64,000 nt of DNA from Methanobacteriota archaeon (GCA_020348345.1 CP070748.1:875196-939195); one strand, 5' to 3'. Counted from the first letter of the stretch, positions 8,167 to 33,502 are shown. Notes: generated by a model not told the origin, from the letters alone. A program made the numbers and translations.

Positions 8167-8582
8167 GCGAGTTCAATCCCAACATTCTGGCGTTCTGCTG
8201 CAACTGGTGCTCGTACGCAGGGGCGGATCTTGCAGGAGTCAATAGACTTCAAATGCCTCCGAACGTGAACGTTGTAAGGGTGATGTGCAGTGCCAGCGTC
8301 AAGCCTGAGTACGTATTCAAGGCAATCTCTCAAGGTATCGATGGTGTTCTGGTTCTGGGGTGTCACATCGGAGACTGTCATTACCTAACTGGCAATCATC
8401 GGACCGCAAAGCGCATACCACTCACCGCGAAGATTCTCGAGAAGGTTGGCATCGACCCCAGACGCGTCCAATTGGACTGGGTTAGCGCGGCTGAGGGTGA
8501 GAAGTTCCAGCAGGTTGTGACGCAGTTCGTCGATGACATCAGGAGCCTGGGACCCAATCCGATGAAGGAGGTGAGATTCTGA
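8163..8582 (+). CDS. mvhD: MvhD/FlpD-type [2Fe-2S] electron-transfer subunit
   Basis: ILAFCCNWCSYAGADLAG...VRVMCSASV...GVLVLGCHIGDCHY is the methyl-viologen-reducing hydrogenase delta subunit signature. ATGA overlap with the upstream gene. Confidence 0.9.
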   Translation: MSEFNPNILAFCCNWCSYAGADLAGVNRLQMPPNVNVVRVMCSASVKPEYVFKAISQGIDGVLVLGCHIGDCHYLTGNHRTAKRIPLTAKILEKVGIDPRRVQLDWVSAAEGEKFQQVVTQFVDDIRSLGPNPMKEVRF

Positions 8583-8599
8583 TCGCTGATGCCGAGAAG

Positions 8600-9379
8600 G
8601 TGATGCGCCTTGCATTCGAAGAACGGGGTGCGGACTACCTGCTCGCCATCAAGGAGGCGCATGGCCAGGCCGCTCCAGTGCTTCTTAGGAAAGGCGACGA
8701 TGCAGGTACCATGCGGTTCGACGTACCCTATCAAATGACGATGATTCTCACCAATATTAGTCGATTCATCAAGGAGGGCAGAATTGCTGTCGTTGCCCGC
8801 AGGTGTGACGAACGGGCAATAGCAGAACTGGTGAAGAGAGACCTCTTGAATCACGACAATCTCGTCGTCATTGGGCTTGCCTGCAGCGAAGAACAGATAC
8901 GCGAATGTCGATGCACTGACCCGTGCCCGAGCAGCGCGGACATCGGGCATTGCGCTGCCCCTGCCAAAGAAGACCAGGCGGCTTCAAGCATACAGAGCAT
9001 GCCTCTTCCGGACAGACTTGACTATTGGATAGATCAGTTCCGAAAATGCAACAAGTGTTTTGGCTGCACGTTGAACTGTCCTGTGTGCTTTTGCGACGAT
9101 TGCCTTCTGGAAGAGAAAACATTCACGCCAGAGAAGGGCATCCCACCAGGGCTTGCGTTCCACCTGATCCGTGCGGTGCACTTGGCCGACAAGTGTGTCG
9201 AGTGTGGGGAATGCGAGCGGTCATGCCCGTCCGACATACCGTTGCTGGCATTGAGAAAGATGGTCAACCAGGACATGAAAAGGATGTTCAATTATACCAG
9301 TGGCGATCCCGAACGAAGGAGTCCGTTGCTTACCACGCTCGAAGGTGACCCGATGGAGGATGATGGCGATGCCTGTTGA
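8600..9379 (+). CDS. 4Fe-4S dicluster electron-transfer protein (AsrA/HydB-beta-like)
   Basis: CNKCFGCTLNCPVCFCDDC and CVECGECERSCP cluster motifs. Sits between mvhD and fdhA. The start is ambiguous (GTG 8600 or ATG 8603, with a strong AAGGAGGTGA at 8565-8574). Confidence 0.6.
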   Translation: MMRLAFEERGADYLLAIKEAHGQAAPVLLRKGDDAGTMRFDVPYQMTMILTNISRFIKEGRIAVVARRCDERAIAELVKRDLLNHDNLVVIGLACSEEQIRECRCTDPCPSSADIGHCAAPAKEDQAASSIQSMPLPDRLDYWIDQFRKCNKCFGCTLNCPVCFCDDCLLEEKTFTPEKGIPPGLAFHLIRAVHLADKCVECGECERSCPSDIPLLALRKMVNQDMKRMFNYTSGDPERRSPLLTTLEGDPMEDDGDAC

Positions 9380-11405
9380 CTACATCCTGACGACGTGTCC
9401 GTACTGCGGTACTGGCTGCAACTTCTTCCTTCAGGTTGCGGACGGGCGGGCGGTTGGTGTAGTGCCATGCAAGACCGATGAAACCAGCGCTGGCAGCCTT
9501 TGCATAAAAGGATACAACGCGCACGCATTCGTCAATCACAGTGACAGGCTGACGCATCCGATGATAAGAGAAGGAGACCAGCTGAGCAAGGCGACCTGGG
9601 AGGAGGCGCTGCAGAGGATAGCATCGGAGATGAAGCGGATATCCGACGAACACGGTCCGGATGCCATCATGGTTCTCGCTTCAGCGAAATGCACGAACGA
9701 GGAGAACTACCTAATCCAGAAGGTTGCACGTGCTGCCATCGGAACGAATAACGTCGATCACTGTGCCCGGCTCTGTCACGCATCCACGGTCGCAGGACTG
9801 CTTCAATCGTTCGGCAGCGGAGCAATGACCAACACGATACCGGAATTCGAGAATGCGGACTGCATACTCGTCACCGGCTCGAACACTCTGGAAGCGCATC
9901 CCCTGATCGGAACCAGAATACTCAAAGCGAGGGACAAGGGGGCGAAGGTAATCGTCGTGGATCCTCGAGATACCCCTCTCTCGCGCGTGGCGACGATCAG
10001 CATGCGACAGGAATCGGGATCGGATGTCGCGTGGATCAATGGCATGATAAACATCATCATATCAGAGAAACTGCACGATGAGGAGTTCATCGCAGCTCGT
10101 ACGACCGGTTTCGACGAGTTGCGAGAAATCGTCAAGAATTACACTCCCGAGAGAGTGAAGAGCCTCACCGGAATTCCCGAGGATGACCTCGTGTCTGCCG
10201 CCAAGATGTATGCATCTGCTGACAAAGCCATGATAGCCTACGCGATGGGAATCACTCAACACAGTAACGGGACAAACCTGGTGCGAGCGCTGGCAAATCT
10301 CGCAATGGTAACCGGGAACGTGGGCAGGGAATCCACGGGCGTCAATCCATTAAGGGGGCAATGCAACGTCCAGGGCGCATGCGACGCAGGCGCGTTACCG
10401 AACCTTTATCCAGGATATCAAAGCGTGGAGGATGCCGAGACGCGCTCCAAATTCGAGCATGCATGGAATCGAAAGCTCAGCGAAAAGAAGGGCATGGCTT
10501 TGACCAACGCATTCGACAAGGCCCTGACTGGTGAGGTGAAGGCGATGCTCATATTCGGCGAGAATCCGATGATGTCGGACCCTGACATCGGGCACGTCGA
10601 AAGGGCAATTTCGAAGCTGGAGTTCATGGCGGTCATCGATATCTTCCCCACCGAGACCGTGAAGCTTGCCGACGTGGTCCTCCCTGCCGCGTGCTATGCG
10701 GAGAAGAACGGAACGTTCACGGCGACTGACCGAGCGGTAAGAGCGGTCAGGAAGGCCGTAGATCCGCCAGGCGACGCAAGGCCCGATTGGCAGATAGCCT
10801 GTGATCTCGGGAGATTGCTTGCAGGCGATGGCTTCGACTTCGCCTCACCCGAGCAAGTGCTGGCTGAGATGGCCGCGGTCGCGCCGATCTACGGCGGGAT
10901 CGATTACGAGCGAATCGAAGAGGAGATGGTCCGCTGGCCTTGTCCGTCTAAAGACCACCCAGGCACGAAGGTTCTGCACACAGAATCGTTCAAGATTGGC
11001 AAGGGTGTATTCGCACCCATCGAGCACACTCCTCCAGCGGAGGAGACTTCGGACGAGTATCCACTAATCCTCACGACCGGCAGAAACCTCTTTCAATTCC
11101 ACACTGGCACGATGACAAGGAGATCCGCCAAGCTTCAGCGGGAAGCTGCAGGACCCTACGTCGAGATCAACACGGAGGATGCGCGGAGGCTCGGCATCAT
11201 CGACGACGCAAGCGTTAGAATCACCTCACGAAGAGGGACCATAACCCTGGCTGCCAGGGTCACACAATGGATCAGACCGGGAACCATCTTCATTCCCTTC
11301 CACTATGCCGAAGCGGCTGCGAACAGACTTACTAACAACGCGTTGGATCCGACCGCCCAGATCCCGGAATACAAGGTGTGTGCGGCGAGATTGGAGAAAG
11401 CCTGA
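9369..11405 (+). CDS. fdhA: Formate dehydrogenase catalytic subunit (molybdo/tungstopterin, Cys-type, cytoplasmic)
   Basis: N-terminal TTCPYCGTGCNF 4Fe-4S motif. HCARLCHASTVAGL aligns with the FdhH ARVUHGPSVAGL active site, with TGT (Cys) at 9774-9776. No Tat signal. Start chosen 9 nt after GGAGG; ATG 9360 and 9363 are also possible. The track ORF start at 9300 is rejected. Confidence 0.85.
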   Translation: MPVDYILTTCPYCGTGCNFFLQVADGRAVGVVPCKTDETSAGSLCIKGYNAHAFVNHSDRLTHPMIREGDQLSKATWEEALQRIASEMKRISDEHGPDAIMVLASAKCTNEENYLIQKVARAAIGTNNVDHCARLCHASTVAGLLQSFGSGAMTNTIPEFENADCILVTGSNTLEAHPLIGTRILKARDKGAKVIVVDPRDTPLSRVATISMRQESGSDVAWINGMINIIISEKLHDEEFIAARTTGFDELREIVKNYTPERVKSLTGIPEDDLVSAAKMYASADKAMIAYAMGITQHSNGTNLVRALANLAMVTGNVGRESTGVNPLRGQCNVQGACDAGALPNLYPGYQSVEDAETRSKFEHAWNRKLSEKKGMALTNAFDKALTGEVKAMLIFGENPMMSDPDIGHVERAISKLEFMAVIDIFPTETVKLADVVLPAACYAEKNGTFTATDRAVRAVRKAVDPPGDARPDWQIACDLGRLLAGDGFDFASPEQVLAEMAAVAPIYGGIDYERIEEEMVRWPCPSKDHPGTKVLHTESFKIGKGVFAPIEHTPPAEETSDEYPLILTTGRNLFQFHTGTMTRRSAKLQREAAGPYVEINTEDARRLGIIDDASVRITSRRGTITLAARVTQWIRPGTIFIPFHYAEAAANRLTNNALDPTAQIPEYKVCAARLEKA

Positions 11406-15035: not shown

Positions 15036-15926
15036 TCAGCCCTTGTAGTCGTGATGCACCTTTGCTGCGCGAACCGTGTTCTTCATCAGCATAGTGATGG
15101 TCATCGGGCCAACTCCTCCGGGAACTGGCGTGATGGCTTTCGCCTTATCCTTGACCGCGTCGAAGTCGACATCACCGACCAGTCTCTTGCCACTCTTGGT
15201 CGTCGGGTCATCGATTCGGTTGACTCCAACATCCACCACAACCACGCCATCCTTCACCATATCCGCTTTGACAAACTTGGGCACACCCATCGCAGCGATG
15301 AGAATGTCTGCCTGCCTGGACAGGGCAGGAAGGTCGGCCGTGCGAGAATGACAGACCGTAATGGTGGCGTCCGCTCCGGCCGCCTTCTGTACGAGAATGT
15401 TGGCAATGGGCTTTCCGACAATGTTGCTTCTTCCAAGTATGACGACGTGCTTTCCCTTTGGATCGTTTCCGCTCCTGACTAAGAGGTCCTGAATTCCAGC
15501 AGGAGTACATGGGAGATATGTTTCTGCGCCGACAACCATCTTGCCGACGTTGACAGGGTGGAAACCATCCACATCCTTCCCGGGATCGATTCTCATCAGG
15601 ACCTTCTCTTCGCTGATCTGCTTCGGCAGGGGGAGTTGCACGAGAATTCCATCAAACTCCGGGTCCGCGTTGTATTTGTCGACCAGCTTCAGCATCTCGT
15701 CCTCAGAGGTGGTTGCGGGGAGCCTGATAGTCTCCGATTTGATGCCCAGCTCCTCGCACGCCTCGCCCTTCTTCCGGACGTAGACCTGCGATGCCGGATC
15801 TTCTCCAACAAGAATGACGACCAGCCCTGGCGTCACACCGGAGACCTTCATCTTGGATATCTCCTCCTTAAGCTCGGCCCTTATGGTCTTCGCAACATCG
15901 TTTCCGCTTATGATTTCCGCCGCCAT
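15036..15926 (-). CDS. folD: Bifunctional methylene-THF dehydrogenase / methenyl-THF cyclohydrolase
   Basis: ILVGEDPASQVYVRKK, ILVQLPLP, HPVNVG, GRSNIVGKP and PVPGGVGPMT motifs. Start set at MAAEIISG; the track ORF start at 15980 is rejected. Confidence 0.9.
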   Translation of the reverse strand: MAAEIISGNDVAKTIRAELKEEISKMKVSGVTPGLVVILVGEDPASQVYVRKKGEACEELGIKSETIRLPATTSEDEMLKLVDKYNADPEFDGILVQLPLPKQISEEKVLMRIDPGKDVDGFHPVNVGKMVVGAETYLPCTPAGIQDLLVRSGNDPKGKHVVILGRSNIVGKPIANILVQKAAGADATITVCHSRTADLPALSRQADILIAAMGVPKFVKADMVKDGVVVVDVGVNRIDDPTTKSGKRLVGDVDFDAVKDKAKAITPVPGGVGPMTITMLMKNTVRAAKVHHDYKG

Positions 15927-16013
15927 CGTATCACGTCCAGGGCAAGTTGATGCGGGCGCCTTACTTAAGGTTTCGCGCAAGCTCTAGTCGAGGCTCGAAC
16001 TCCTCCGAAAGGA

Positions 16014-16059: not shown

Positions 16060-17739
16060 ATGGCAATGAAGCCAGATATCGAGATTGCTCAGAAAGCGAA
16101 AGTCCAGCATATCGAGAAGATCGCCGAGAAGGTCGGTCTTTCTCATGACGACCTTGACTTCTACGGGAAGTATAAGGCCAAGGTGCCGTTGAACGTGCTG
16201 AAGAAGTTTGACAGCAACAAGGACGGGAAGCTGATATTCGTTACTGCCATCACGGCTACCAAGGCGGGAGAGGGAAAGACGGTAACGTCCATCGGTCTCT
16301 GTCAGGCATTCGGACAGCTTGGCAAGAATGTGATGCTGTCCTTGAGAGAGCCATCCTTGGGCCCGACTTTCGGGATTAAGGGAGGCGCGACAGGCGGAGG
16401 CTACTCCCAGGTCTATCCGATGTGGGATATCGATCTGCATTTCACAGGGGACATCCACGCTGTGGGCACAGCCCACAACCTCTTGTCTGCGCTCACGGAG
16501 AATCACGTGACAAAGAAGAACGAGCAGAACATCGATCCAACAAGAATCGTGTTCAGAAAAGCTCTTGACATGAACTGCAGAGAGCTCAGGAACATCGTCG
16601 TCGGCCTCGGTGGACGGAGCAAGGGCGGAGTTCCGAGGGAGAGTGGCTTCGACATAACCGTGGCTAGCGAAATCAACGCGATTCTTGCACTCGCAAGCGA
16701 CATGGCAGACCTCAGGAAGAGACTGTCGCGAATTGTAGTTGCATACACGCGCGATGGAAAGCCTATCACTGCGGACAAATTGAAAGGTATTGGTGCGATG
16801 TGCCTCCTGCTGAAGGACGCCATCAACCCCACCCTGGTCCAGACACTCGAAGGTCAGCCTGCGTTCATTCACGGATCCCCGTTCGCCAACATCGCCCATG
16901 GCAACAGTTCCATCATCGCCACGAAGTATGCCCTCAAGATGGCAGACTATGTGATCACAGAGGGCGGCTTCGCTGCAGACCTCGGTGGAGAGAAGTTCTT
17001 CAACATCGTGTGCAGGGTGGGCAACCTCAAGCCGGACGTCGCCGTTCTGGTGGCAAGCATAAGGGCATTGAAGATGCACGGCGGCATGGATGTGAAGGAG
17101 ATAGGCAACCCGAACACTGACTTCCTCGAGAAGGGCTACATGAACCTTGACAAGCACATTGAGAACATGAAGAAATTCGGCGTCCCCGTTGTCGTGGCCA
17201 TCAATCAGTTCCCTACGGACTCTCCCGAGGAGATCGAGCATATCAAGAAGCACTGCGAGAAGGTAGGAGCCAGGTTCGGCCTTTCGAAGGTCTTCACTGA
17301 CGGAGGCAAGGGCGGTGTGGAACTCGCTGAGGCGGTTCTCGAGTCGATTGAGAAGGAGAAGTCCAACTTCAAGGTCCTTTACGACGAAAAGCTCCCGATA
17401 AGTGACAAGATCAGGACGATTGCGACTGAGATCTACGGAGCGGAGGACGTTGTCTATACTGGCACGGCGCCTGCTGACATGAAGGCGATTGAGGCCGCAG
17501 GAAATGACAAGCTCCCGATTTGCATGGCAAAGACGCAGCTGTCGATAACGGACGATCCAGCCAAGAAGGGCGCTCCAAAGGACTGGGTCCTGACTGTCAG
17601 AGAAGTTAGGTTGTCGGCCGGGGCCGGGTTCATCGTCCCTCTAACTGGAGAAATCATGACGATGCCTGGTCTTCCTACGGTTCCAGCAGCCGAGCGGATA
17701 GACATCGACGACGACGGTCACATAACGGGCTTGAATTGA
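16060..17739 (+). CDS. fhs: Formate--tetrahydrofolate ligase
   Basis: 559 aa. PDIEIAQ, ITPTKAGEGKT-type P-loop (AITATKAGEGKTV), FDITVASE, HGGPFANIAHG-type (HGSPFANIAHGNSS) and LPICMAKTQ motifs. Confidence 0.95.
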   Translation: MAMKPDIEIAQKAKVQHIEKIAEKVGLSHDDLDFYGKYKAKVPLNVLKKFDSNKDGKLIFVTAITATKAGEGKTVTSIGLCQAFGQLGKNVMLSLREPSLGPTFGIKGGATGGGYSQVYPMWDIDLHFTGDIHAVGTAHNLLSALTENHVTKKNEQNIDPTRIVFRKALDMNCRELRNIVVGLGGRSKGGVPRESGFDITVASEINAILALASDMADLRKRLSRIVVAYTRDGKPITADKLKGIGAMCLLLKDAINPTLVQTLEGQPAFIHGSPFANIAHGNSSIIATKYALKMADYVITEGGFAADLGGEKFFNIVCRVGNLKPDVAVLVASIRALKMHGGMDVKEIGNPNTDFLEKGYMNLDKHIENMKKFGVPVVVAINQFPTDSPEEIEHIKKHCEKVGARFGLSKVFTDGGKGGVELAEAVLESIEKEKSNFKVLYDEKLPISDKIRTIATEIYGAEDVVYTGTAPADMKAIEAAGNDKLPICMAKTQLSITDDPAKKGAPKDWVLTVREVRLSAGAGFIVPLTGEIMTMPGLPTVPAAERIDIDDDGHITGLN

Positions 17740-17963
17740 GACAGCGTTGGCTCCGCTCGTTCGGAACGTCAGGGCTGCCCGAGCGCCCGGAGGTTTAAAA
17801 CCCTTTCCTTTTCATTACGCTCTGGGAACGGCTTTCTTGTTCCAGCGCATATCAAACGCGACGCCCTGATGGCGAAGGCCAGCGGCCTTCTGAACCAATA
17901 AGGGCATGTCACCACAGACACCCTTGAAATCGCCAAATCCGCAGAAGAGGGAGGAGAACAACA

Positions 17964-19217
17964 ATGAAGGTCCTCGTGATTGGAGGAGGTCCAGCGGGCC
18001 TAACCGCAGCCGGGACCCTTGCGAGCAACGGTCTGGAAGTAGCATTGGTGGAGAGAGACTACACCCTCGGAGGCATGGCCAAAGAGCTCACATGCAAGGG
18101 CATCACAGAATGCAGGGATTGCGGCGTCTGTTTCGCCATTGACCGCGCCGCAGAGGCAGTCAGGACGCCTGGAATCGAGGTTTTCTTGAGTTCAGAGATT
18201 ACATCCTTGGAAAAGACCAACGAGGGGTTCAAGGCGAAGATCCGCTCTTCAGCGCGGTTCGTCACACACAACTGCATTGGTTGCAACAACTGCGTCGAAG
18301 TCTGCCCTGTTGAAGGCAAGGCGATCTTTGCACCTTCTGGCAGTGGCCAGCCTCGAACATATTGGATTGATCGCAAGCGATGTTTGCACTTCAAGAAGAG
18401 CAAGTGCGAGGAATGCGCGAAGGCCTGTCCGACGAAGGCTATCGATTTCTCTGACAGAGCGAAGAACGTGACGAGAACAGTCTCCAAGGTTGTGCTGGCG
18501 ACTGGCATTGAGCCTTTCGACGCCCAGGAGCTTCCGAGACTGGCCTGCGGAACAACCTCCGATGTTATCTCCAGCGTTGATGCGGAAAGGATAATCAACG
18601 AAGAGGGGCGATTGAAGAGGCCATCAGATGGAGTCGTACCGAAGACGGTAGCGATGATTCAGTGCGTGGGTTCCCGTAACGAAAAGACTGGCATCGGATA
18701 CTGCTCGAAGTTCTGCTGCAAGTACGGAACGAAGATCGCACAGCTGATAATGGAAGGCTCTCCGGAAATGGACCTCGATTTCTACTTCATGGACCTGAGG
18801 ACACTGTATGAACCTCAGGAAGATTTCAAGAAATGGGCAGTGGCGATGAAGAGGAAGGTAGAGAAGAAGAAGGTGCCGCGTGTGAGGCTGATAAGATGCA
18901 TGCCTTCCTTAGCATATCCTGGAGAAGATGGGAAGATATGGCTGCGATCATCGGGAGAGACAGACGCTGAAGTGATGGAAACTCCCTACGACATGGTGAT
19001 ACTCTCTGTGGGAATGCGGCCGCGTGGCGTGCCTGAGGACATCGCTTCTCGACTAGGCCTGGCTTTTGATGATAACGGCTTCGCACGATGCCAGGATGAA
19101 GAAGGCGACCCAGTCGTGATCGTTCTGGGAGCGATGAGTGAACCCATGGATATCGAGGAGACCGTCACCAGGGCGATGGCAGCGGCTGCTACCCCGAGAA
19201 AGGAGGCGGGCGAATGA
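17964..19217 (+). CDS. hdrA: HdrA-like flavoprotein, FAD core plus inserted ferredoxin (paralogue of 5168-6472)
   Basis: VLVIGGGPAGLTAAGTLA, CIGCNNCVEVCP, CEECAKACP, IQCVGSR and YCSKFCC. Same architecture and length class as the first cassette. ATGA overlap with the next gene. Confidence 0.8.
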   Translation: MKVLVIGGGPAGLTAAGTLASNGLEVALVERDYTLGGMAKELTCKGITECRDCGVCFAIDRAAEAVRTPGIEVFLSSEITSLEKTNEGFKAKIRSSARFVTHNCIGCNNCVEVCPVEGKAIFAPSGSGQPRTYWIDRKRCLHFKKSKCEECAKACPTKAIDFSDRAKNVTRTVSKVVLATGIEPFDAQELPRLACGTTSDVISSVDAERIINEEGRLKRPSDGVVPKTVAMIQCVGSRNEKTGIGYCSKFCCKYGTKIAQLIMEGSPEMDLDFYFMDLRTLYEPQEDFKKWAVAMKRKVEKKKVPRVRLIRCMPSLAYPGEDGKIWLRSSGETDAEVMETPYDMVILSVGMRPRGVPEDIASRLGLAFDDNGFARCQDEEGDPVVIVLGAMSEPMDIEETVTRAMAAAATPRKEAGE

Positions 19218-20794
19218 ATCGTGGGACTCAAGTTGTGATATGCCGAGTCTGCTCGGAAGGTGCGGGTCTGCTGGATGTCGACAAGCTCGCTCGAGTGGCC
19301 TCCGATGCACCGGGAGTCTGTTCGACAGTTGTTGTCGAACGCGCGTGTAACAAGAAGACCGTGTTGGAGATAGTCGACGACGCGATGGCAAAGGAAGCCG
19401 ACCGCCTGTTGGTTGCCCCGTGTTCAAAGAAGGAAATCTCGCCTGCCCTGTTCCAAACATATGCGAAGAAGGCCAAGATGAACGAATTCCTGATGGAGGC
19501 AGTGGACATAATCGGAGAGGTCACGCTTCCGCACAGAGATGATCCGACACGCGTTCAACCCAAGGCCGAGGCAAAGCTTCGGTCTGCAATCGTCCGAATC
19601 AACATGCTCGAGCCGTTGCAGAGAACCGAGGAGCGCATGAGGACTTCGAACGTCGTGGTGATTGGAGCAGGCGCCGCCGGAATCGAAGCCGCATCTGTCG
19701 CTTCCGCCTTTGGGCTTCATACAGTCATCATTGAGAAGTCCGAGAAGAAGATTGACGCGCCTGGAGTAGTAATGCCCAAGTCAAGACTCATCTCGGCGAA
19801 AGGTCACGCTGGTAACTACATTCTGACAATAGAAGTAGGAGAGAAGAGAGAGACACTTGAGTGCGCAGCGATTGTCGTAGCATCTGGTGGCGATTGGCGC
19901 GAAGCGAAGGGACCGATTGTGGACGAATTGCAAGTTGCGAAGCCCTTACATCACCTGGAACAAGAAATTGGCGAAGGCAGGCTGCCGGGCGGCGCGATCA
20001 TCATATTGGACACGCCTGACCCAAAAGGTATCAGAACCCCGGCTCAGGATTTCATGTGGGAAGAAGCTCTCCATTGCGCAACGCATATACGCAGGAAATC
20101 CCCCACCACTGAGGTCTATCTGGTCTTCCAAGAGATGCGGGCGATGGGACTCGCCGAATTCGACTACAAGGAGGCATCTGAGCTAGGAGTGAAGTTCATT
20201 CGCTACGATTCCAAGAAGCCTCCGAAGGTCGATACTAAGAACGGAACGCGCCTGATTGTGACAGACATGGCACAGGAAGAGACCCTCTCACTCGCGTTCG
20301 ATACTCTGTATTATGCTTCAGTCGCTCCGAATCCAGACAACGCAGCGATTGCGGTTGCGCTTCGTATTCCGATCTCATCCAGTGGTGGGATAAGAAGAGG
20401 GAGCATCCAGAGAGGACCTGTTGCCACGCCACGTCCAGGCATATTCGTTTGCGGGACAGCAAAGTTTCCAAAGAGCAGAGAAGTCGCGAGACTCGAAGGC
20501 AAGGCTGCGGGACTTATGGCGGCCCAATTTGCGGCGGCTGGCAAGTGGGAGTTTGGAGGCTCGGTTGCGGAGGTCACATCTGACAAGTGCTCTGCGTGTC
20601 TCACTTGCGTTCGAACCTGTCCGTATGAGGCACCCTTCATAGGCATTGCCGGAAAGGCGGAAATCGCAATCCAGATGTGCCAGGGATGTGGAATATGCGC
20701 CGGCATATGTCCCAGCAAGGCGATTGAACTGCACAACTACACTGACGACCAACTCTCGGCAGAGACAGCAGCATATCTCGGAGGTGATTTCTGA
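19214..20794 (+). CDS. hdrA: HdrA-like protein, degenerate N-domain plus Rossmann plus C-terminal ferredoxin (paralogue of 6472-8166)
   Basis: VVICRVCSEGAG...LLVAPCSKKE (Cys-poor N-domain), VVVIGAGAAGIEAAS, CSACLTCVRTCP and CQGCGICAGICP. Its stop overlaps the mvhD start (TGATG). Confidence 0.75.
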   Translation: MNRGTQVVICRVCSEGAGLLDVDKLARVASDAPGVCSTVVVERACNKKTVLEIVDDAMAKEADRLLVAPCSKKEISPALFQTYAKKAKMNEFLMEAVDIIGEVTLPHRDDPTRVQPKAEAKLRSAIVRINMLEPLQRTEERMRTSNVVVIGAGAAGIEAASVASAFGLHTVIIEKSEKKIDAPGVVMPKSRLISAKGHAGNYILTIEVGEKRETLECAAIVVASGGDWREAKGPIVDELQVAKPLHHLEQEIGEGRLPGGAIIILDTPDPKGIRTPAQDFMWEEALHCATHIRRKSPTTEVYLVFQEMRAMGLAEFDYKEASELGVKFIRYDSKKPPKVDTKNGTRLIVTDMAQEETLSLAFDTLYYASVAPNPDNAAIAVALRIPISSSGGIRRGSIQRGPVATPRPGIFVCGTAKFPKSREVARLEGKAAGLMAAQFAAAGKWEFGGSVAEVTSDKCSACLTCVRTCPYEAPFIGIAGKAEIAIQMCQGCGICAGICPSKAIELHNYTDDQLSAETAAYLGGDF

Positions 20795-21213
20795 TGGCCG
20801 ACGCAAAGCCAAAGATTGTTGGCTTCTGCTGCGAGAAACATGGCACGGAGAGCGTTGACCTCGCCATCAGAAGTGGCGAGCAGTATGATGCAAGCGTGAG
20901 GCTTGTCACTGTGCCCTGCACTGGAAGGGTAGACGGACTGCATATTCTCAAGGCGTTGGAAGACGGCGCCGATGCCGTTTTCGTCCTTGGATGCCTTGAG
21001 AAGAACTGCTACTATGACACAGGATCAATCGAGGGTCGGAAGAGGGTTGAGTACGTTAGAACCATGCTTTCAGAGGTGGGTATAGAACCTGAGCGTGTGG
21101 AGATGTTCAACGCAAGCTCCACGATGGTATGGAAGTTCCCCGAAATCGCTTCGACGATGTCACAGACTGCCAGACGTCTTGGTCCAATCGAGCCGAGAGG
21201 TGATACGAAATGA
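20794..21213 (+). CDS. mvhD: MvhD/FlpD-type electron-transfer subunit (second copy)
   Basis: KIVGFCCEKHG...LVTVPCTGRV...AVFVLGCLEKNCYY. 139 aa, the same length as the first copy. Confidence 0.85.
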   Translation: MADAKPKIVGFCCEKHGTESVDLAIRSGEQYDASVRLVTVPCTGRVDGLHILKALEDGADAVFVLGCLEKNCYYDTGSIEGRKRVEYVRTMLSEVGIEPERVEMFNASSTMVWKFPEIASTMSQTARRLGPIEPRGDTK

Positions 21214-21914
21214 TAGTTGCCGAGCGGAAACCCCTCGGTGAGATAGCCGAGATGATTGCCCCATACGAGAAGGTTTGCGTCATAGGGTGCAGGAGCTGCG
21301 TGGCGATATGTCTTGCAGGCGGTGAAAAAGAGGTCAACATGTTGGTTTCTGCAATGGGCCTTCTCAACAGGCGAACGGGACGGACACAGAACCTCGACGG
21401 GCTCGTGCTGGAGAGGCAGTGCGAGAAGGAATGGGTCAAAGAAGTCGAGGACAGGATACTCGAATCGGACGTGATTCTTTCCATGTCATGCTCTCTCGGC
21501 GCACAGACAATAGGAGATATGTATCCCGAGAAGATCGTGGTTCCTGGCCTCAATACGGCCATTTTTGGCGTCCCTGAGGAACAGGGCGTTTGGTCAGAGA
21601 AATGCCTCGGATGCGGAGATTGCATCATTCACACAACAGGGGGGATATGTCCAATCGCCAGATGTGCGAAGAGCATGCTGAACGGACCGTGCGGGGGATC
21701 ATCGGACGGTCATTGCGAGGTCAATCTCGAGCTTGACTGCGCGTGGTATGCAATTCACGAAAGGCTCAAGCTCCAGGGAAGGCTCGAGCTCATGGATATG
21801 GTTAGACCCCCCAAGGAATGGAACACGAGTCATAGCGGAGGACGCAGGGTGATCGTGAGGGAGGAAGCGAGACTGACGTCGCACCAGAAGAGGGCCACGG
21901 AGGAGTCACAATGA
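21210..21914 (+). CDS. metV: MetV, methylene-THF reductase C-terminal-domain (zinc-ribbon) subunit
   Basis: CRSCVAICLAGG, CLGCGDCI and ICPIARCAKSMLNGPCGGSSDGHCEV are typical of the MTHFR_C family. ATGA overlaps on both sides. Confidence 0.85.
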   Translation: MIVAERKPLGEIAEMIAPYEKVCVIGCRSCVAICLAGGEKEVNMLVSAMGLLNRRTGRTQNLDGLVLERQCEKEWVKEVEDRILESDVILSMSCSLGAQTIGDMYPEKIVVPGLNTAIFGVPEEQGVWSEKCLGCGDCIIHTTGGICPIARCAKSMLNGPCGGSSDGHCEVNLELDCAWYAIHERLKLQGRLELMDMVRPPKEWNTSHSGGRRVIVREEARLTSHQKRATEESQ

Positions 21915-22831
21915 AGACCGGCAGCAACTTGGAGAAGGTCTTCGAGGCCGGCAAATTCGCAGTTACGGCGGAGATAGGGCCGCCTCAGTCGGCAAACCCG
22001 GAACCTCTCATACATCACGCGAAGATGTTGAACGGGTCTGCCGACGCCTTCAACCTCACCGACAACCAGACAGCTGTCGTAAGGCTTTCCAGCATCGCCA
22101 GCGCAGCCATAATCATGAAGGAGGGAATTGAGCCCGTCATCCAGATGACATGCAGAGACAGGAACAGAATCGCCCTTCAGAGCGATCTGCTTGGCGCCTG
22201 CGCGATCGGCGTGAAGAACGTCCTTTGCCTGACGGGCGATCACCAGATTTTCGGAAACGAGAAAGCAGCAAAGAGCGTGTTCGATTTCGATTCCGTTTCG
22301 GAACTCTACACGTTCAACAAACTGAGGAATGAAGGACTGCAACCTGGAGGCAACGTCCTCGAGGAGAAGCCAGAAGTGTATCTAGGCTGTGCCGAGAACC
22401 CCTTCGCCACGCCTTACGAATTCAGAGCAACAAGATTGGCGAAGAAGGTAAACGCTGGTGCGGACTTCGTGCAGACGCAGGCAATATTCGACATGGACAT
22501 GTTTGAGCTGTGGATGGATGAGGTGAGGAGCAGAGGCCTGGACAAGAAAACTCACATACTTGCAGGCCTGATCCCCATGAAAACCGCAGGGGCCGCTAGA
22601 TACATGAAGAACAAGGTCCCGGGAATGATAGTGCCCAAGCGAATCATAGACAGGATGAAGAATGCATCAGACGCAGCAGAGGAGGGCATCAAACTGTGCG
22701 TCGAGCAGATTGATACCCTCAAGAGCATGAAGGGCGTCCATGGCGTGCATATCATGGCTGTCAAGTGGGAGGAGATCGTTCCACGCATCGCAGAGATGGC
22801 GGGACTTCTCCCCCGACCCAGCTTCGACTGA
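21911..22831 (+). CDS. metF: Methylenetetrahydrofolate reductase
   Basis: 306 aa. FAVTAEIGPP, NLTDNQTAVVRLS, QMTCRDRNR, NVLCLTGD and ADFVQTQAIFD motifs. Confidence 0.9.
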   Translation: MKTGSNLEKVFEAGKFAVTAEIGPPQSANPEPLIHHAKMLNGSADAFNLTDNQTAVVRLSSIASAAIIMKEGIEPVIQMTCRDRNRIALQSDLLGACAIGVKNVLCLTGDHQIFGNEKAAKSVFDFDSVSELYTFNKLRNEGLQPGGNVLEEKPEVYLGCAENPFATPYEFRATRLAKKVNAGADFVQTQAIFDMDMFELWMDEVRSRGLDKKTHILAGLIPMKTAGAARYMKNKVPGMIVPKRIIDRMKNASDAAEEGIKLCVEQIDTLKSMKGVHGVHIMAVKWEEIVPRIAEMAGLLPRPSFD

Positions 22832-22937: not shown

Positions 22938-24605
22938 ATGGCATCACCCGAATTTGAGACGCTTAACGAGCGTATGCTCGACAGACTCCTCGAGGTCAAT
23001 CCCGACATGGCTACCCTGATGGGGAGGCATGTGCCGTATGACCACCATTTGCCACATGGTGGAGTCAAGAGGCTGGAAGACAGCCTCTCGATTCTGAGGG
23101 ATTGGATTAGCGAGGCCAATCGAATCGCAGATTGTGGAGAGTTCTCAAGAGACCAAGAGATCTCGTACGAAGTCCTTCGCATGACTCTTGATCTGCATGC
23201 TTTCGCCTTTAGCGATTACCCGATCTGGAAGATGCACCCAGATGCACTGGAGCAGCCTGGTTGGACCATATTCACCATGCTGGCCCGCGACTACGCTCCT
23301 TTTGAGGACAGGATTGCTGGGGTATCATCGCGCATAGATCAGCTACCTAGATATCTTACTCAGTTCAGAGAACGCTTCAGAAATGCCCGGGCTGTGCGCC
23401 CATGGACGGAGGCATCCCTGGAGGGATGTGAGGCATTCCCTGCCTTTCTATCATCTGTAAGACAGATCTCGATTGGAAAAGTCCCCCGAGACCTGCAGAA
23501 AGACCTCGAAGATAAATGCGATGCATGCGTCGATCATATCCAATCCCATCGCGAATGGCTCTCAGGGCTCCTCGAGGAGGCGACGAACGAGTTCGCTTTG
23601 GGAGAGGAGAAGCTGATAAAACTCCTTCAAATCAGAGGCTTCGACCTCACACCGAAGGAGATGCTCGAGATTGGAGAGCGATACCTCTCCAAGATGCGGA
23701 GTATGCGAGATATCATCGCGAGGAAGATCACCCCTGACGGTGACATCAATGTCGTCACGAAAATCATTCGTCACAATTGCGCAGACTCTTTCGAGGGAGT
23801 GCTGAATGAAACCATAGAGGAGACGAACAAGGCGCTACGCTTCATCTCAGAGCACAAGCTTGCCACTCTGGACGACCGGGCTATACTTGACATTCTTGAG
23901 ACTCCGAAATTCTTGCGACACGCGCTGCCGGTCGCAGCACTCATGGCGCCTGCGAAGTTCGAAGAGACCCAGCGAGGCGCTTTCTTGATGACTCGCCCAA
24001 AGGACCTTGAGGAGATCCCCAGTTTGTGGAACAGGGCCATGATCATCAACACGGCCGTTCACGAAGCGTATCCAGGCCATTTCCTCCAAGGTGTGATGTC
24101 TAACAGGATGCCGTGGATGCACCAGCTGCCACACATGCTTACGACTTCCGATATGTTGACCCCGCCATATGAGACAGGAGAAGGCTGGGCACACTATTGC
24201 GAAGAGATGATGTACGAAGAAGGATTCGAGGCAAACGACCAAACCGCGATCGCAATGTTGGATGCAGGGATATGGAGAGCGTGCAGGATCATTTACGACA
24301 TCAAGCTTCACACCGAAAAGGCAACGATCGAAGAGATGGCGGAGCTGCTGGCGAAGGAGTCGAATACGGTGATCTCTGCCGCGATGGACGATGTGATCGG
24401 CTTCTCCCGGACTCCTGCATACCCGCTTTCATATCTCATCGGCAAACATCTCGTGAATGAACTCAGAGATCAGCTTGCGGCAGAACTCGGGCATGCTTTT
24501 GACAAGATGAGATTCCACGACCTCCTGACAGAAAACGGAAACCTACCATTTCACATTGTTAGGCAGGTCATATGGGAAGAAATGACGAGTGAAAGAGAAG
24601 CATAG
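22938..24605 (+). CDS. DUF885 family protein
   Basis: HEAYPGHFLQ motif with the surrounding DUF885-like region. Start set at MASPEFETLNE; the track ORF start at 22740 overlaps metF and is rejected. Confidence 0.75.
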   Translation: MASPEFETLNERMLDRLLEVNPDMATLMGRHVPYDHHLPHGGVKRLEDSLSILRDWISEANRIADCGEFSRDQEISYEVLRMTLDLHAFAFSDYPIWKMHPDALEQPGWTIFTMLARDYAPFEDRIAGVSSRIDQLPRYLTQFRERFRNARAVRPWTEASLEGCEAFPAFLSSVRQISIGKVPRDLQKDLEDKCDACVDHIQSHREWLSGLLEEATNEFALGEEKLIKLLQIRGFDLTPKEMLEIGERYLSKMRSMRDIIARKITPDGDINVVTKIIRHNCADSFEGVLNETIEETNKALRFISEHKLATLDDRAILDILETPKFLRHALPVAALMAPAKFEETQRGAFLMTRPKDLEEIPSLWNRAMIINTAVHEAYPGHFLQGVMSNRMPWMHQLPHMLTTSDMLTPPYETGEGWAHYCEEMMYEEGFEANDQTAIAMLDAGIWRACRIIYDIKLHTEKATIEEMAELLAKESNTVISAAMDDVIGFSRTPAYPLSYLIGKHLVNELRDQLAAELGHAFDKMRFHDLLTENGNLPFHIVRQVIWEEMTSEREA

Positions 24606-24639: not shown

Positions 24640-24728
24640 CATTCAGGCTATACTCTCGTGGCATACCTTTGCCTTGCAAGGGGAGGGATGCTCTGGACGA
24701 ATGTCACTGGCATAGTGGAGAAGGTAGT

Positions 24729-26285
24729 ATGAGCAAGGTAAGAAGAGCGCTTGTGAGCGTATCGGACAAGACAGGAGTGGCAGAGTTCGCCAAAGGCCTT
24801 TCGGAACTGGGCGTTGTTATACTCTCAACTGGAGGAACCGCGACGATGCTCGAGAAGAATGGCATTCCAGTAATTGGAGTATCTGAGATCACGAAATTCC
24901 CCGAAATGTTGGACGGACGTGTCAAGACCCTCCACCCGGCAATCCATGGAGGGCTTCTAGCAGTGAGAGAGAAGGCAGACCATATGGAGGCAATTGGCAA
25001 GCATGGAATCGAGCCTATTGACATGGTCGTAGTCAACCTGTATCCATTCGAGAACACAGTCTCAAGAGAAGGAGTCGTGTTGGAGGATGCGGTTGAGAAC
25101 ATCGACATTGGCGGCCCATCAATGCTCCGATCGGCCGCGAAGAATCACGCCTCTGTTGCTGTTGTTGTGAACCCCTCCCAGTACTCCGAAGTGCTACGCG
25201 AGTTGAGGGAGAGCGACTGCAGGCTATCATTAGATACGAGGCAGAAGCTGGCTCTCGAGGCATTCAGAGTCACTGCGAGATACGATTCAGCAATTGCCCA
25301 GTTCCTTGGAGAACGGTTTTCGAAGGGAGATCTATTCCCTCAGAATCTGACGCTCTCGTTCGAGAAACTCTACGATCTCAGATATGGTGAGAACCCTCAC
25401 CAGAAGGCGGCCTTCTACAGAGACCTATTTGACCAGACGCCTCTGAGTGCAGCAACTGCGGAGAAACTGCATGGCAAGCAGATATCCTACTGCAACGTGC
25501 TCGACATAGACGCCGCGCTGGCAATCGTATCGGATTTCGAAAAACCGACCGCGGCAGTTATCAAACACACAAATCCTTCAGGCGTCGCAAGCGATGCCAC
25601 ATTGGCGAGCGCATTCAGGGTGGCATACGACGCCGATCCAGTAAGCGCATTCGGCTGTGTCGTTGGACTCAACCGTGAAGTCGATGTTGACACTGCCAAG
25701 GAGATTGCGAGTCATTTCGTCGAGGCGGTCATAGCTCCGGGCTACTCCTCAGATGCTGAGAAGCTCCTCGAGGAGAAGAAGAACATCAGACTGCTCAGCA
25801 CGAAATCCCCAATCAAGCGTGAGAATGGCAGACTTATGATGGCGAAGGTCAAGGGCGGATTGCTGGTTCAGACTGGCCCGTATGCGGAGTTGGATAGGAA
25901 GGAGCTCAAGATTGTGACGAAACGCACCCCAACCGAAGAGGAAATCGACGCAATGATATTCGGGATCAAAGTATGCCGGCACATCAAATCCAATACGATC
26001 CTGCTCGTGAAGGGCGAGAGAACTGTGGGAGTCGGAGCGGGCCAGATGAGCAGAGTGGACTCCGCAAAGATAGCCGGCATGAAAGCTGGCGACGAGGCAA
26101 AGGGAAGCGTCCTCATATCGGATGCGTTCTTCCCATTCAGAGACGGCATCGACGCTGCCGCGAAGGTTGGCGTTGCTGCGATAATTCAACCGGGAGGCTC
26201 CATGAGAGACGAGGAAGCCATAGCTGCTGCGGACGAACACGGGATAGCCATGGTGTTCAGCGGCCTTCGGTTGTTCAGACACTGA
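24729..26285 (+). CDS. purH: Bifunctional AICAR formyltransferase / IMP cyclohydrolase (bacterial-type PurH)
   Basis: ALVSVSDKTG, STGGTA, GRVKTLHP, VVVNLYPF, IDIGGPSMLRSAAKN, KHTNPSG and GAGQMSRVDS motifs. Confidence 0.95.
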   Translation: MSKVRRALVSVSDKTGVAEFAKGLSELGVVILSTGGTATMLEKNGIPVIGVSEITKFPEMLDGRVKTLHPAIHGGLLAVREKADHMEAIGKHGIEPIDMVVVNLYPFENTVSREGVVLEDAVENIDIGGPSMLRSAAKNHASVAVVVNPSQYSEVLRELRESDCRLSLDTRQKLALEAFRVTARYDSAIAQFLGERFSKGDLFPQNLTLSFEKLYDLRYGENPHQKAAFYRDLFDQTPLSAATAEKLHGKQISYCNVLDIDAALAIVSDFEKPTAAVIKHTNPSGVASDATLASAFRVAYDADPVSAFGCVVGLNREVDVDTAKEIASHFVEAVIAPGYSSDAEKLLEEKKNIRLLSTKSPIKRENGRLMMAKVKGGLLVQTGPYAELDRKELKIVTKRTPTEEEIDAMIFGIKVCRHIKSNTILLVKGERTVGVGAGQMSRVDSAKIAGMKAGDEAKGSVLISDAFFPFRDGIDAAAKVGVAAIIQPGGSMRDEEAIAAADEHGIAMVFSGLRLFRH

Positions 26286-31855: not shown

Positions 31856-31963
31856 GCGGGAGTAGCTAAGCCTGGCCAAAGGCGCAGGACTTAAGATTTG
31901 CTCGAACGCGGATTGGATATTCTGTCTCACAGGAGTCCAGGGGTTCAAATCCCCTCTCCCGCA
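31856..31963 (+). tRNA. tRNA-Leu (anticodon UAA) with a ~23-nt intron at the canonical 37/38 position
   Basis: Acceptor stem GCGGGAG/CTCCCGC with discriminator A. D-arm GCT-AAGCCTGGCCAAA-GGC. T-arm AGGGG-TTCAAAT-CCCCT. 14-nt variable arm. The anticodon stem CAGGA/TTCTG pairs only if 31896-31918 is removed, which gives loop CTTAAGA. Confidence 0.8.
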
Positions 31964-32047: not shown

Positions 32048-33502
32048 TCAGGCGTCGGGCAGCCGTGTAGCAGCTTTCAGAATATCATCTATTTCCTTTC
32101 TCTGCTCCCTGTCCAATGGTTTGACAGTGTGCTTATGTAGTATGTGCTGGACCCTTTCTCTGGCCTTCGCACGCATGTCTTTCGCTCCAAGGCCGATCCA
32201 CCTCTCTGCGATGTTGCGGTCAGCTAGCTCAGGCAACCAAACGTCGCGCTTCAAGTGTTCGAGGGTATGCATTGTACCAATGAAATCTCCCCCAGGTCCG
32301 ATTCTATCAATGAGCTCCAAGGCGAGAGTCTCTCCGTCGACAGCCATGCCATCCTTGATCCTGGACAACGCACCTGCGATTTCATCGTCCATTACGAGCT
32401 GTTCGACGCTGTATGTGGTAGCCGAGGACAGCATGGCGGGTCCGAAGATCACATCTGCTCCGGCGAGAACAGGAGGCAGGCCAGTCATTGCCTTCTCAAA
32501 CATCGCCTGGTCGCCGGGCAGCTTCCCATCAGTGCTGATAGCCCCGACAAGCGAAGGGAGGCCGTAACTATTTGCCATCTGGACTGCCGCCGCGTTGAGC
32601 ACAGCTCGCTCAGGCGCCCCCAACGCAAGAACTCCGGTTCTCATATCCATCGTTGAGGCGACGCTTCCGTAGATGACCGGGCTGCCCGCATTCACCAGCT
32701 GACACAGCACAACGCCAGTCAGCACTTCAGCGTTGGTCAACGCGAGCTGTCCAGCAAGCGTGATTGGAGAGGTCCCTCCGCCCATAGCCATGCTGAGAAC
32801 ATCATATGGCATTCCAGCTCCTGCAAACTCCAGCATCGCCTCGGTGTTCTCAACATCAAACTGAAGAGGGCTAACAGGGCAGCCGCCAGCGGATACGACA
32901 GGGCTCTTGCGAAGCTCATCCTCTCCTCCAGCCACGACCTGCGCCATTCTGACCAAGAGCCTGGTGAGATTCGTCCCGTGGGCTTCGTGAGTGACGTGCT
33001 TGGTCGTGTTCTCCAGAGCTGCCGCGGTCTCTGCCAGAAAGTGGGAGCCGCCTTTGACATCATGCGCCACCACGGTGGGACCATAGTAATGGACGTTATC
33101 CAGGGCATCAGCAACCTTGGCGAACACCTGAATATCCGATAGAACCGACCCCCTTACTTCGCCAGTAAGATGGTCAAGAACCTTTATCCCGGTAGCGGAG
33201 TTTGTGTAGAATGTCTTGCCAGAGCCAAGCTCGATTGAATTCGAAGGATCGCGAGCCGCTAGTCGGATGCGAGAAGGTGCGCTTTCGAGAGCCTCTCTCA
33301 CAACTCTCTCTGGAATCCTCACCCTTGAATTGGCCTTGTCTATTCGGACGCCCTCTCTGCCCAGAAGCTCCTGACTCTGTCGCTCATATATGGTCACGCC
33401 TGTGGTGCTGAGAATCCTCATAGTAGCATCGTCTATGAGAGCTATCTCGTCCTCCGCAAGAACCTCATATCTCACTTGACTACCTCTTCGTCCACCCGAC
33501 AT
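32048..33502 (-). CDS. MttB-superfamily methyltransferase, non-pyrrolysine type
   Basis: About 484 aa with the family-typical N-terminus (LAEDEIALIDDATMRILSTTGV) and TIM-barrel-length body. Uninterrupted ORF with no in-frame TAG. Start is ATG 33502 or 33523; the track start at 33598 is unlikely. Confidence 0.8.
   Translation of the reverse strand: MSGGRRGSQVRYEVLAEDEIALIDDATMRILSTTGVTIYERQSQELLGREGVRIDKANSRVRIPERVVREALESAPSRIRLAARDPSNSIELGSGKTFYTNSATGIKVLDHLTGEVRGSVLSDIQVFAKVADALDNVHYYGPTVVAHDVKGGSHFLAETAAALENTTKHVTHEAHGTNLTRLLVRMAQVVAGGEDELRKSPVVSAGGCPVSPLQFDVENTEAMLEFAGAGMPYDVLSMAMGGGTSPITLAGQLALTNAEVLTGVVLCQLVNAGSPVIYGSVASTMDMRTGVLALGAPERAVLNAAAVQMANSYGLPSLVGAISTDGKLPGDQAMFEKAMTGLPPVLAGADVIFGPAMLSSATTYSVEQLVMDDEIAGALSRIKDGMAVDGETLALELIDRIGPGGDFIGTMHTLEHLKRDVWLPELADRNIAERWIGLGAKDMRAKARERVQHILHKHTVKPLDREQRKEIDDILKAATRLPDA

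Follow-up and report, generated by a model that had tools for sequence, protein, structure and literature searches.

What kind of redox machine arises when a methylene-tetrahydrofolate (methylene-H4F) reductase is joined to two HdrA-like proteins and an MvhD adaptor, with neither hdrB nor hdrC in the operon? This question is raised by five overlapping genes at 17964-22831 of a 64,000-nucleotide stretch of DNA from a Methanobacteriota archaeon (GCA_020348345.1, CP070748.1:875196-939195), the whole of which is called the window below. We refer to this MetVF-linked operon as cassette 2 and to a formate dehydrogenase (Fdh)-linked operon in the same window, at 5168-11405, as cassette 1; the HdrA-like subunits a and b of the two cassettes are A2a/A2b and A1a/A1b, respectively (Table 1).

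The two HdrA-like proteins of cassette 2 are, judging from their domain content, two HdrA paralogues with complementary domain loss, or a "heterodimeric HdrA." A previous reading of the window, made from the sequence alone, had taken them for the parts of one split HdrA, but both proteins hold a complete thioredoxin reductase (TrxR)-type fold, and together they comprise 943 aa, compared with about 650 aa for one HdrA. Tandem HdrA genes have been described to form heterodimers where the N-domain is found without Cys197 in one copy and the other copy shows the reverse (Chadwick et al., 2022, PMC9012536). In cassette 2, subunit b carries the N-domain but lacks C194/C197, subunit a carries the corresponding C53/C56 but lacks an N-domain, and the two genes overlap by 4 nt. 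This complementarity is the criterion proposed for heterodimeric HdrA, and it puts the pair, as a predicted heterodimer, in the tandem class (PMC9012536). Neither subunit is the four-domain single polypeptide by which an ordinary HdrA is recognized, and both score far under the NCBIfam HdrA and HdrA2 cut-offs of 1100-1400 bits (subunit a at 268 bits, covering only positions 141-555 of the 777-position HdrA2 model, and subunit b at 179 bits in two stretches).

To place individual ligands, the solved HdrA chains 5odc_A (145-559) and 8rvu_a (13-654) were rebuilt from HMMER alignments, with exact lengths, and aligned with the four HdrA-like proteins of the window. Subunit a aligns to 5odc_A 145-559 (E 3.6e-59), which is the whole TrxR/flavin adenine dinucleotide (FAD) domain with its inserted 2x[4Fe-4S] ferredoxin, and Pfam and NCBIfam likewise recognize an FAD-binding Rossmann fold and a 4Fe-4S dicluster; a C-terminal ferredoxin is absent. 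The FAD motif GxGxxG is formed by G7, G9, and G12, with the acidic E30 at the end of beta-2, while C53 and C56 correspond to C194 and C197 of HdrA. The inserted ferredoxin carries two sets of four cysteines (C104, C107, C110, C114 and C140, C148, C151, C155), and the [4Fe-4S] site of the TrxR domain (HA4) is preserved as C234, C247, C251, and C252, equivalent to C386, C399, C403, and C404 of 5odc. Subunit a also has E208 and K257, equivalent to E356 and K409, the pair next to the flavin that serves as a criterion for a bifurcating-type HdrA flavin (cited in PMC9430772). All of these residues, from the FAD motif with E30 and C53/C56 through E208 and K257 to the eight ferredoxin cysteines of the insert and the four of HA4, are invariant in 34 of 34 Thermoplasmata orthologues.

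Subunit b, in which Pfam and NCBIfam find a Rossmann fold and a C-terminal dicluster, presents the opposite picture. Its N-domain, previously thought to have lost most canonical cysteines, has C10, C13, C45, and C70, of which C10, C45, and C70 are in register with the canonical CxC...C...C pattern and C13 is displaced by one residue, giving CxxC instead of CxC; 35-36 of 36 orthologues share these cysteines. The eight ligands of the C-terminal 2x[4Fe-4S] ferredoxin (C459, C462, C465, C469 and C489, C492, C495, C499) are kept in 34-36 of the 36, and the FAD motif (G151, G153, G156) with E174 is invariant in all of them. The TrxR fold has no inserted ferredoxin, and the four-cysteine HA4 site (CxGSR...YCSxxCC) is absent from all 36 orthologues, with DTPDP at 266-270 in its place. 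The column of K409 is occupied by His287 in the window protein and by E, D, or Q in its orthologues, with Lys in none of the 36, and the Glu column is not conserved. The alignments thus locate the actual degeneration of subunit b in its TrxR domain, where HA4 and the Lys have been lost, and not in its N-domain. An AlphaFold2 model (pLDDT 84, pTM 0.73) has HdrA chains 8rvy_A, 5odc_A, and 7bkb_A as its best Foldseek matches in the PDB (E 3e-36 to 1e-32, TMq 0.58-0.64). The closest homologues of subunit b are 45-94% identical and 523-527 aa long, and those with a source name come from Thermoplasmata or "Methanobacteriota" metagenome-assembled genomes (MAGs). The ratio of nonsynonymous to synonymous substitution is 0.08 in two independent close pairs, near that of subunit a (0.09-0.11) and MetF (0.04-0.065), and subunit b is therefore a constrained, functional gene under purifying selection.

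The remaining three proteins are equally well preserved. MvhD matches the full length of its domain model (PF02662, 1-123/123), and C13, C42, C67, and C72 are invariant in 44 of 44 orthologues, C12 in 41. MetV keeps 13 cysteines in 44-45 of 45 orthologues (C27, C30, C34, C71, C94 and C132, C135, C138, C147, C152, C161, C169, C177) and has no sequence homologue in the PDB, while MetF has distant matches to solved methylene-H4F reductases (MTHFRs). By their domains, a TIM-barrel MTHFR domain in MetF and a DUF5981 domain with Fe-S cysteines in MetV, the two are assigned to the MetVF-type MTHFRs. The coordinates, lengths, and domains of the five open reading frames (ORFs) agree with those of the sequence-only reading, as does the operonic coupling of the HdrA-like/MvhD cassette to metV-metF. 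All four junctions overlap (ATGA at 19214-19217, TGATG at 20792-20796, ATGA at 21210-21213, and ATGA at 21911-21914), and a Shine-Dalgarno sequence, GGAGG or GGAGGTGAT, lies 6-10 nt 5' of each ATG, which gives the five genes the look of a single unit coupled in translation. Between fhs and the operon, in a gap of 224 bp, TTTAAA at 17794-17799 is a possible archaeal TATA box, and an Rfam scan of the window found no regulatory RNA close to the operon.

A genome scan using one genome per GTDB species located the subunit b family in 42 distinct Thermoplasmata loci, including UBA10834 (Ca. Gimiplasmatales), RBG_19FT_COMBO_56_21, and the closed genomes CP070736.1 and CP070732.1, and more distant versions in 14 Methanomassiliicoccales loci. 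The a-b-mvhD-metV-metF core is intact in 31 of the 42 and 11 of the 14, respectively; the Thermoplasmata exceptions are contigs that end within the cluster, and in Methanomassiliicoccales several clusters are fragmented. Fragmentation of a, b, metV, or metF in several Methanomassiliicoccales MAGs (L053, L054, L056, L057), with L054, L056, and L057 belonging to Methanomassiliicoccaceae, suggests decay of the cluster there. Four Methanomassiliicoccaceae loci (L055, L059, L060, L064) act as natural deletion variants, having a subunit a without the inserted ferredoxin domain and a subunit b without the N-domain, and retaining HA4, the E/K pair, the C-terminal ferredoxin, MvhD, and MetVF. The joint loss of the insert and the N-domain indicates that the ferredoxin branch behaves as one unit, and retention of the other two branches argues that the MvhD side and the HA4 side are the conserved core and that HA4 has a partner. 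In Methanomassiliicoccales the FAD motif of subunit b is eroded to GxGxxA with no acidic residue, which fits a scaffold role for its TrxR domain.

Taken together, we read cassette 2, with moderate confidence, as a methylene-H4F reductase that is coupled to ferredoxin by flavin-based bifurcation or confurcation and has its third redox partner encoded elsewhere. Gene content, conserved ligands, synteny, purifying selection, and fold are observed; that the proteins form a complex, how it is wired, which way the electrons run, and what the third partner is are what we infer. In the proposed model, MetF, MetV, MvhD, HdrA(b), and HdrA(a) would form one soluble complex, in which an asymmetric HdrA pseudo-dimer handles the electrons of the methylene-H4F/methyl-H4F oxidoreductase. 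Subunit a would provide the sole flavin with a bifurcation signature, the HA4 cluster, and the inserted ferredoxin domain that contacts ferredoxin; its C56 would complete the cluster held by the N-domain of subunit b, whose TrxR domain would serve as a scaffold. Three arms could then meet at the FAD of subunit a. The first would connect it, through the C-terminal ferredoxin domain of b, the [2Fe-2S] cluster of MvhD, and the MetV clusters, to the MetF flavin. The second would reach ferredoxin by way of a composite cluster, held by the N-domain of b together with C56 of a, and then of the ferredoxin domain inserted in a, and the third would lead through HA4 of a to a partner outside the operon, the likeliest candidate being an HdrBC- or HdrD-type module encoded elsewhere. 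The a/b pair would in this way keep exactly one of the two electron paths of the canonical HdrA dimer (paths after the solved structure, PMC9012536), and flavin-based bifurcation or confurcation would link the -200 mV methylene/methyl-H4F couple to ferredoxin and a third redox couple within the H4F one-carbon (C1) pathway (fhs, folD, metVF). As in bacterial clusters HdrCB is found on the HA4 side with MvhD-MetVF also present, and as pull-downs of Sporomusa ovata link HdrA, HdrB, MvhD, MetV, and MetF (PMC9430772) and the gene order is conserved, MetVF is best placed, by homology, on the MvhD arm.

Several observations weigh against this model. First, none of about 56 archaeal loci has a gene for a candidate third partner within 10 kb, so that the HA4 branch has no end point there. 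Second, the S. ovata counterparts form no stable complex, and a non-bifurcating, membrane-linked role has been proposed for them. Third, with purH, fhs, and folD as conserved neighbors, a C1 role that is anabolic alone would fit as well. Finally, which reaction would make thermodynamic sense depends on the third couple. We are more reserved about the stronger claim of a true ferredoxin-reducing or -consuming bifurcating methylene-H4F reductase that has no HdrBC in its operon and works with a minimal, single-path HdrA pseudo-dimer and a further third couple, which we hold to be possible but less likely than not. If true, it would be the first MTHFR with demonstrable ferredoxin coupling by flavin-based bifurcation, and would close a gap in the energetics of the H4F pathway of non-methanogenic Thermoplasmata.

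The local absence of hdrB and hdrC, noted before for this window, extends to every archaeal locus: when the CCG-domain HdrD-like protein of the window was used in a phmmer search against all ORFs of 67 loci, no CCG-domain gene was found within +/-10 kb of any archaeal locus, and the sole match was in the bacterial locus L052 (Syntrophorhabdus), a Moorella-type cluster with a 1480-aa HdrA and an HdrB-like CCG gene upstream. Local absence is not genome-wide absence: hdrA is often unlinked from hdrBC in the literature, and MAG surveys report hdrA-D and mvhAGD in these Thermoplasmata orders (PMC11264602 for mvhAGD). The gene for the HdrD-like protein itself (409 aa) overlaps that of a NarI/nitrate-reductase-gamma-like membrane protein of 324 aa, which it directly follows. 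The two make up a membrane module of HdrED/DsrMK type, which lies about 36 kb from the operon and is a conceivable partner for the HA4 branch. Two conserved opposite-strand genes (about 200-227 aa and 270-285 aa) lie between fhs and hdrA-a in Methanomassiliicoccales L044, L051, L055, L059, and L064 and are absent from Thermoplasmata loci; they were dropped as partner candidates after inspection by eye, made without a domain search, revealed no cysteine-rich motifs.

A simpler reading would do without a third partner altogether. Cassette 2 would then encode a plain, non-bifurcating reduced-ferredoxin:methylene-H4F oxidoreductase, with electrons passing from ferredoxin through the inserted ferredoxin domain, the N-domain cluster, FAD, the C-terminal ferredoxin, MvhD, and MetV to MetF, and with HA4 reduced to a structural role. 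The lack of a third-partner gene in or near the operon in every archaeal locus agrees with it, as does the reported use of reduced ferredoxin by stand-alone clostridial MetVF in vitro (PMC8515935, PMC8760232). However, a merely structural HA4 is hard to reconcile with the invariance of its four cysteines and of the E/K pair, or with the Methanomassiliicoccaceae, in which loss of the ferredoxin branch and retention of HA4, MvhD, and MetVF are only sensible with HA4 as a working entry or exit. An uncoupled drop of about 250 mV would, moreover, probably be wasteful for an energy-limited anaerobe, and we consider this reading unlikely.

We give a somewhat lower chance still to an arrangement that puts MetVF at the HA4 face in the place of HdrBC and has MvhD recruit a donor, either MvhAG hydrogenase or the FdhA/FdhB-like pair of cassette 1. 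Hydrogen or formate would then reduce methylene-H4F and ferredoxin jointly, in analogy to MvhAGD-HdrABC and as a version of the formate-to-methylene-H4F idea of the sequence-only reading. HdrBC is indeed missing locally, the solved complexes 5odc, 7bkb, and 8rvu have MvhD as their adaptor to MvhG or FdhB, the reported mvhAGD genes (PMC11264602) could supply a hydrogenase, and the energetics would probably be favorable. Among 21 fully flanked Thermoplasmata loci, 14 have FdhA less than 10 kb from cassette 2; none of the six Methanomassiliicoccales loci that still keep the cassette does, and Methanomassiliicoccales are reported to lack Fdh altogether (PMC6147122). Bacterial clusters such as L052 hold HdrCB, MvhD, and MetVF together, so MetVF cannot occupy the HdrC site there, and the adjacency and overlap of mvhD and metV are kept from bacteria to archaea. 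Cassette 1 also has its own MvhD and HdrA pair. Nothing found requires or specifically supports the joint Fdh-Hdr-MetVF supercomplex that had been suggested.

By sequence, cassette 1 resembles the methanogen FdhAB-MvhD-Hdr complex. Its 259-aa Fe-S protein is a shortened FdhB homologue, chiefly the FdhB C-terminal part (E 1e-25 to 1e-27 to 7bkb_E, 8rvu_E, and 9t1s_M), and SAKCTNEE in FdhA suggests a cysteine-type, not a selenocysteine-type, Fdh. The FdhA ORF listed from GTG 9300 overlaps the FdhB-like gene by 80 nt, and an ATG around 9360 is the likely start. The three-gene architecture is common to both cassettes, and counterpart identities of 32% (a), 29% (b), and 34% (MvhD) bear out the earlier view that they are old, diverged paralogues and not a recent duplication. 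The accompanying idea of a shared cassette did not survive. It had been held to fail if the counterparts were not each other's closest homologues, and A1a and A2a are not: A2a ranks only 106th of 150 for A1a, at a distance of 0.69, compared with 0.48 for canonical 5odc HdrA. In a neighbor-joining tree, the MetVF-linked a-clade of Thermoplasmata and Methanomassiliicoccales excludes both A1a and canonical HdrA in 95 of 100 bootstraps. An exhaustive search of 1.84 billion cluster representatives with A2a as the query gave 666 proteins at E<=1e-30; outside the family of A2a, its nearest relatives are a-type proteins that are short and stand alone (41-38% identity). Fused a+b proteins of about 1000 aa and Moorella-type proteins of about 1500 aa are much nearer to A1a (up to 50%; 48-50% for the fused double HdrAs of about 1000 aa) and A1b (44-48%) than to A2a/A2b. 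Deeper branching of the a-subunit tree, rooted with the b-type TrxR domain, has only 48-56% bootstrap, and we make no claim on one versus two origins of the tandem form. These comparisons indicate deep paralogues within a single architectural class, as opposed to one module that the cassettes share or that was copied recently. The reading of them as exchangeable copies of a single mobile "bifurcation core" that two enzymes acquired recently, to which the common architecture and overlap style and the HdrA/MvhD units beside many different enzymes in Desulfobacterium autotrophicum (PMC2702500) might point, is highly improbable given their low identity, the tree, the closeness of A1a/A1b to fused double and canonical HdrAs, and the unlike cofactor sets, with HA4 and E/K present in b of cassette 1 and not in b of cassette 2.

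Table 1. Features of the window discussed in the text, in order of position.
Feature	Position	Strand	Remarks
Cassette 1 hdrA-a	5168-6472	+	HA4 Cys and E/K kept
Cassette 1 hdrA-b	6472-8166	+	HA4 Cys and E/K kept
Cassette 1 mvhD	8163-8582	+	MvhD
Cassette 1 short FdhB-like Fe-S protein	8600-9379	+	259 aa
Cassette 1 FdhA, Cys-type (suggested)	about 9360-11405	+	listed ORF from GTG 9300
folD (methylene-H4F dehydrogenase/cyclohydrolase)	15036-15980	-	conserved divergent neighbor
fhs (formate-H4F ligase)	16060-17739	+	PF01268 5e-257; conserved directly upstream of operon
Cassette 2 hdrA-like subunit a	17964-19217	+	417 aa; HdrA TrxR/FAD core with inserted ferredoxin domain
Cassette 2 hdrA-like subunit b	19214-20794	+	526 aa; N-domain, TrxR fold, C-terminal ferredoxin
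Cassette 2 mvhD	20794-21213	+	139 aa; [2Fe-2S] adaptor; PF02662 1.5e-37; NF045873 VhuD 4e-32
Cassette 2 metV	21210-21914	+	234 aa; Fe-S subunit of MetVF-type methylene-H4F reductase; PF12225 (DUF5981) 2.8e-34
Cassette 2 metF	21911-22831	+	306 aa; flavin-binding methylenetetrahydrofolate reductase catalytic subunit; PF02219 2.2e-40
DUF885 protein (probable start)	22938-24605	+	555 aa; downstream in most Thermoplasmata loci, then purH
purH (AICAR formyltransferase/IMP cyclohydrolase)	24669-26285	+	conserved downstream in both archaeal groups
Rfam tRNA match	31856-31963	+	108 nt; 40.2 bits
MttB-family ORF	32048-33598	-	516 aa, uninterrupted
Rfam PYLIS_3 match	32437-32536		54.6 bits
Two adjoining hybrid sensor kinases	34004-39418	-	869 and 896 aa; both have a receiver, several PAS and an HATPase domain
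RadA/Rad51 recombinase	44316-45773	-	intein splicing domain inserted
HdrD-like protein	58312-60512	-	positions include the overlapping gene of the 324-aa NarI-like protein; HdrD-like protein of 409 aa with 4Fe-4S dicluster and two CCG domains

The uncultured host is, by its sequence, a Thermoplasmata archaeon near Ca. Gimiplasmatales and Methanomassiliicoccales. The window encodes archaeal-type genes (TiaS, GGGP synthase (PcrB), a UbiA prenyltransferase, RadA with an intein, and KaiC/GvpD-type ATPases), and the comparison with bacteria made in the sequence-only reading has to be set against this archaeal context. Searches with window proteins by tblastn gave the gene order folD(-), fhs, a, b, mvhD, metV, metF, (DUF885), purH. 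The DUF885 gene probably starts at ATG 22938 and not at 22740, where a 621-aa ORF would overlap metF by 92 nt; its orthologues have 550-555 aa. Together, fhs, folD, metVF, and purH would constitute an H4F C1 block, in a methylotrophic or acetogenic setting, and a non-pyrrolysine MttB-family methyltransferase gene lies 9 kb downstream of the operon. Methylotrophy or acetogenesis has been proposed for Ca. Gimiplasmatales from MAGs (PMC11264602), and an oxidative, anabolic use of the H4F pathway for Methanomassiliicoccales (PMC6147122); the operon architecture is compatible with either direction.

Other features of the window and of the surveyed loci were recorded in passing. A pyrrolysine reading of the MttB gene was rejected, as it has no in-frame stop or UAG, and the PYLIS_3 match probably reflects coding-sequence similarity in a non-pyrrolysine MttB-superfamily methyltransferase. 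The Rfam tRNA match, not reported by ARAGORN, may be an intron-containing archaeal tRNA. The sensor kinase genes and the intein-bearing recombinase gene are listed in Table 1. In the bacterial loci L062, L065-L067, and L070 (Brocadiaceae, Actinomycetes, Eubacteriales, Planctomycetota), proteins of about 670-700 aa, which have only the C-terminal ferredoxin domain in common with subunit b, are encoded just upstream of metV-metF, with an mvhD-like gene in between detected only in L065; they may represent another MetVF-partner architecture.

Whether and with which partners MetVF-type methylene-H4F reductases conserve energy by bifurcation is a long-standing question of Wood-Ljungdahl bioenergetics. 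Of the bacterial complexes studied, that of S. ovata has no ferredoxin-binding domain and that of Moorella thermoacetica has an unidentified second acceptor, whereas the archaeal operon keeps a complete ferredoxin branch on a one-path HdrA pair. Its components, the heterodimer concept, and the MetVF-HdrA-MvhD link are already published, and the operon is a variant of a system of acetogenic bacteria. In the searchable full-text literature, which does not extend to subscription papers, we found no description of the cassette 2 operon in Thermoplasmata; Poudel (2018) gives M. intestinalis as the sole archaeal "Met" candidate, and MAG papers on these orders list HdrA-D, MvhAGD, and MTHFR separately. 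Within that literature, the unfused form that retains the whole ferredoxin branch, the subunit b without HA4, the consistent absence of hdrBC from the locus, the conservation in about 55 archaeal species genomes, and the coordinated loss of the ferredoxin branch in Methanomassiliicoccaceae appear to be undescribed. Published MAG reconstructions of these Thermoplasmata orders may misjudge C1 electron flow, either by taking C1-H4F reactions as NAD(P)H-linked or by counting "HdrA" as heterodisulfide reductase. Since the Methanomassiliicoccaceae without the ferredoxin branch include the cultured Methanomassiliicoccus luminyensis, the operon is a compact and comparatively tractable test system.

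Among known systems, the MvhAGD-HdrABC and FdhAB-MvhD-HdrABC complexes of methanogens (5odc, 7bkb, 8rvu) match cassette 2 in their folds and in the ligands of FAD, HA4, the N-domain cluster, the two ferredoxin domains, and MvhD. Their HdrA is a symmetric homodimer with two complete electron paths and HdrBC bound, whereas cassette 2 keeps one path, and the position of hydrogenase or Fdh would be taken by MetVF. The stand-alone MetVF of Clostridium ljungdahlii and Thermoanaerobacter kivui has the same pair of MetV and MetF with conserved Fe-S cysteines, but no HdrA or MvhD partners. In QmoAB of sulfate reducers, two HdrA paralogues act jointly with an MvhD-like module, but Qmo feeds APS reductase and has a membrane subunit, QmoC. 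The tandem or fused heterodimeric HdrAs of anaerobic methanotrophic archaea (ANME; HdrA5/6, 12/13, 3, and 4) likewise have the N-domain and Cys197 in opposite copies and a C-terminal ferredoxin in one copy only (PMC9012536). The ANME clusters are unlinked to MetVF, with metF adjoining hdrA in no ANME-1 genome and only in Ca. Syntrophoarchaeum (PMC9012536), and the loss of HA4 and the Lys from subunit b is an additional feature of the archaeal family of cassette 2. Closest in gene order is HdrCBA-MvhD-MetVF of M. thermoacetica and S. ovata, in which mvhD-metV-metF directly follows hdrA (Mock 2014; Kremp 2022, PMC9430772). This acetogen system is bacterial and includes hdrB and hdrC, whereas the host of cassette 2 is archaeal and both genes are missing from the operon and the 10-kb surroundings of all archaeal loci; the Moorella HdrA, moreover, has a GltD/NAD(P)H insertion, and neither a nor b of cassette 2 has a GltD-type domain in Pfam or NCBIfam. 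The S. ovata HdrA differs in having its modules fused and no inserted ferredoxin domain in module a, where cassette 2 has separate modules and keeps the insert. Nevertheless, its 942 aa correspond to the 417 and 526 aa of subunits a and b, with the modules in the order a then b, its module b has an N-domain, a TrxR domain without inserted ferredoxin, and a C-terminal ferredoxin, and in both systems the E/K bifurcation pair is present in one module only (PMC9430772).

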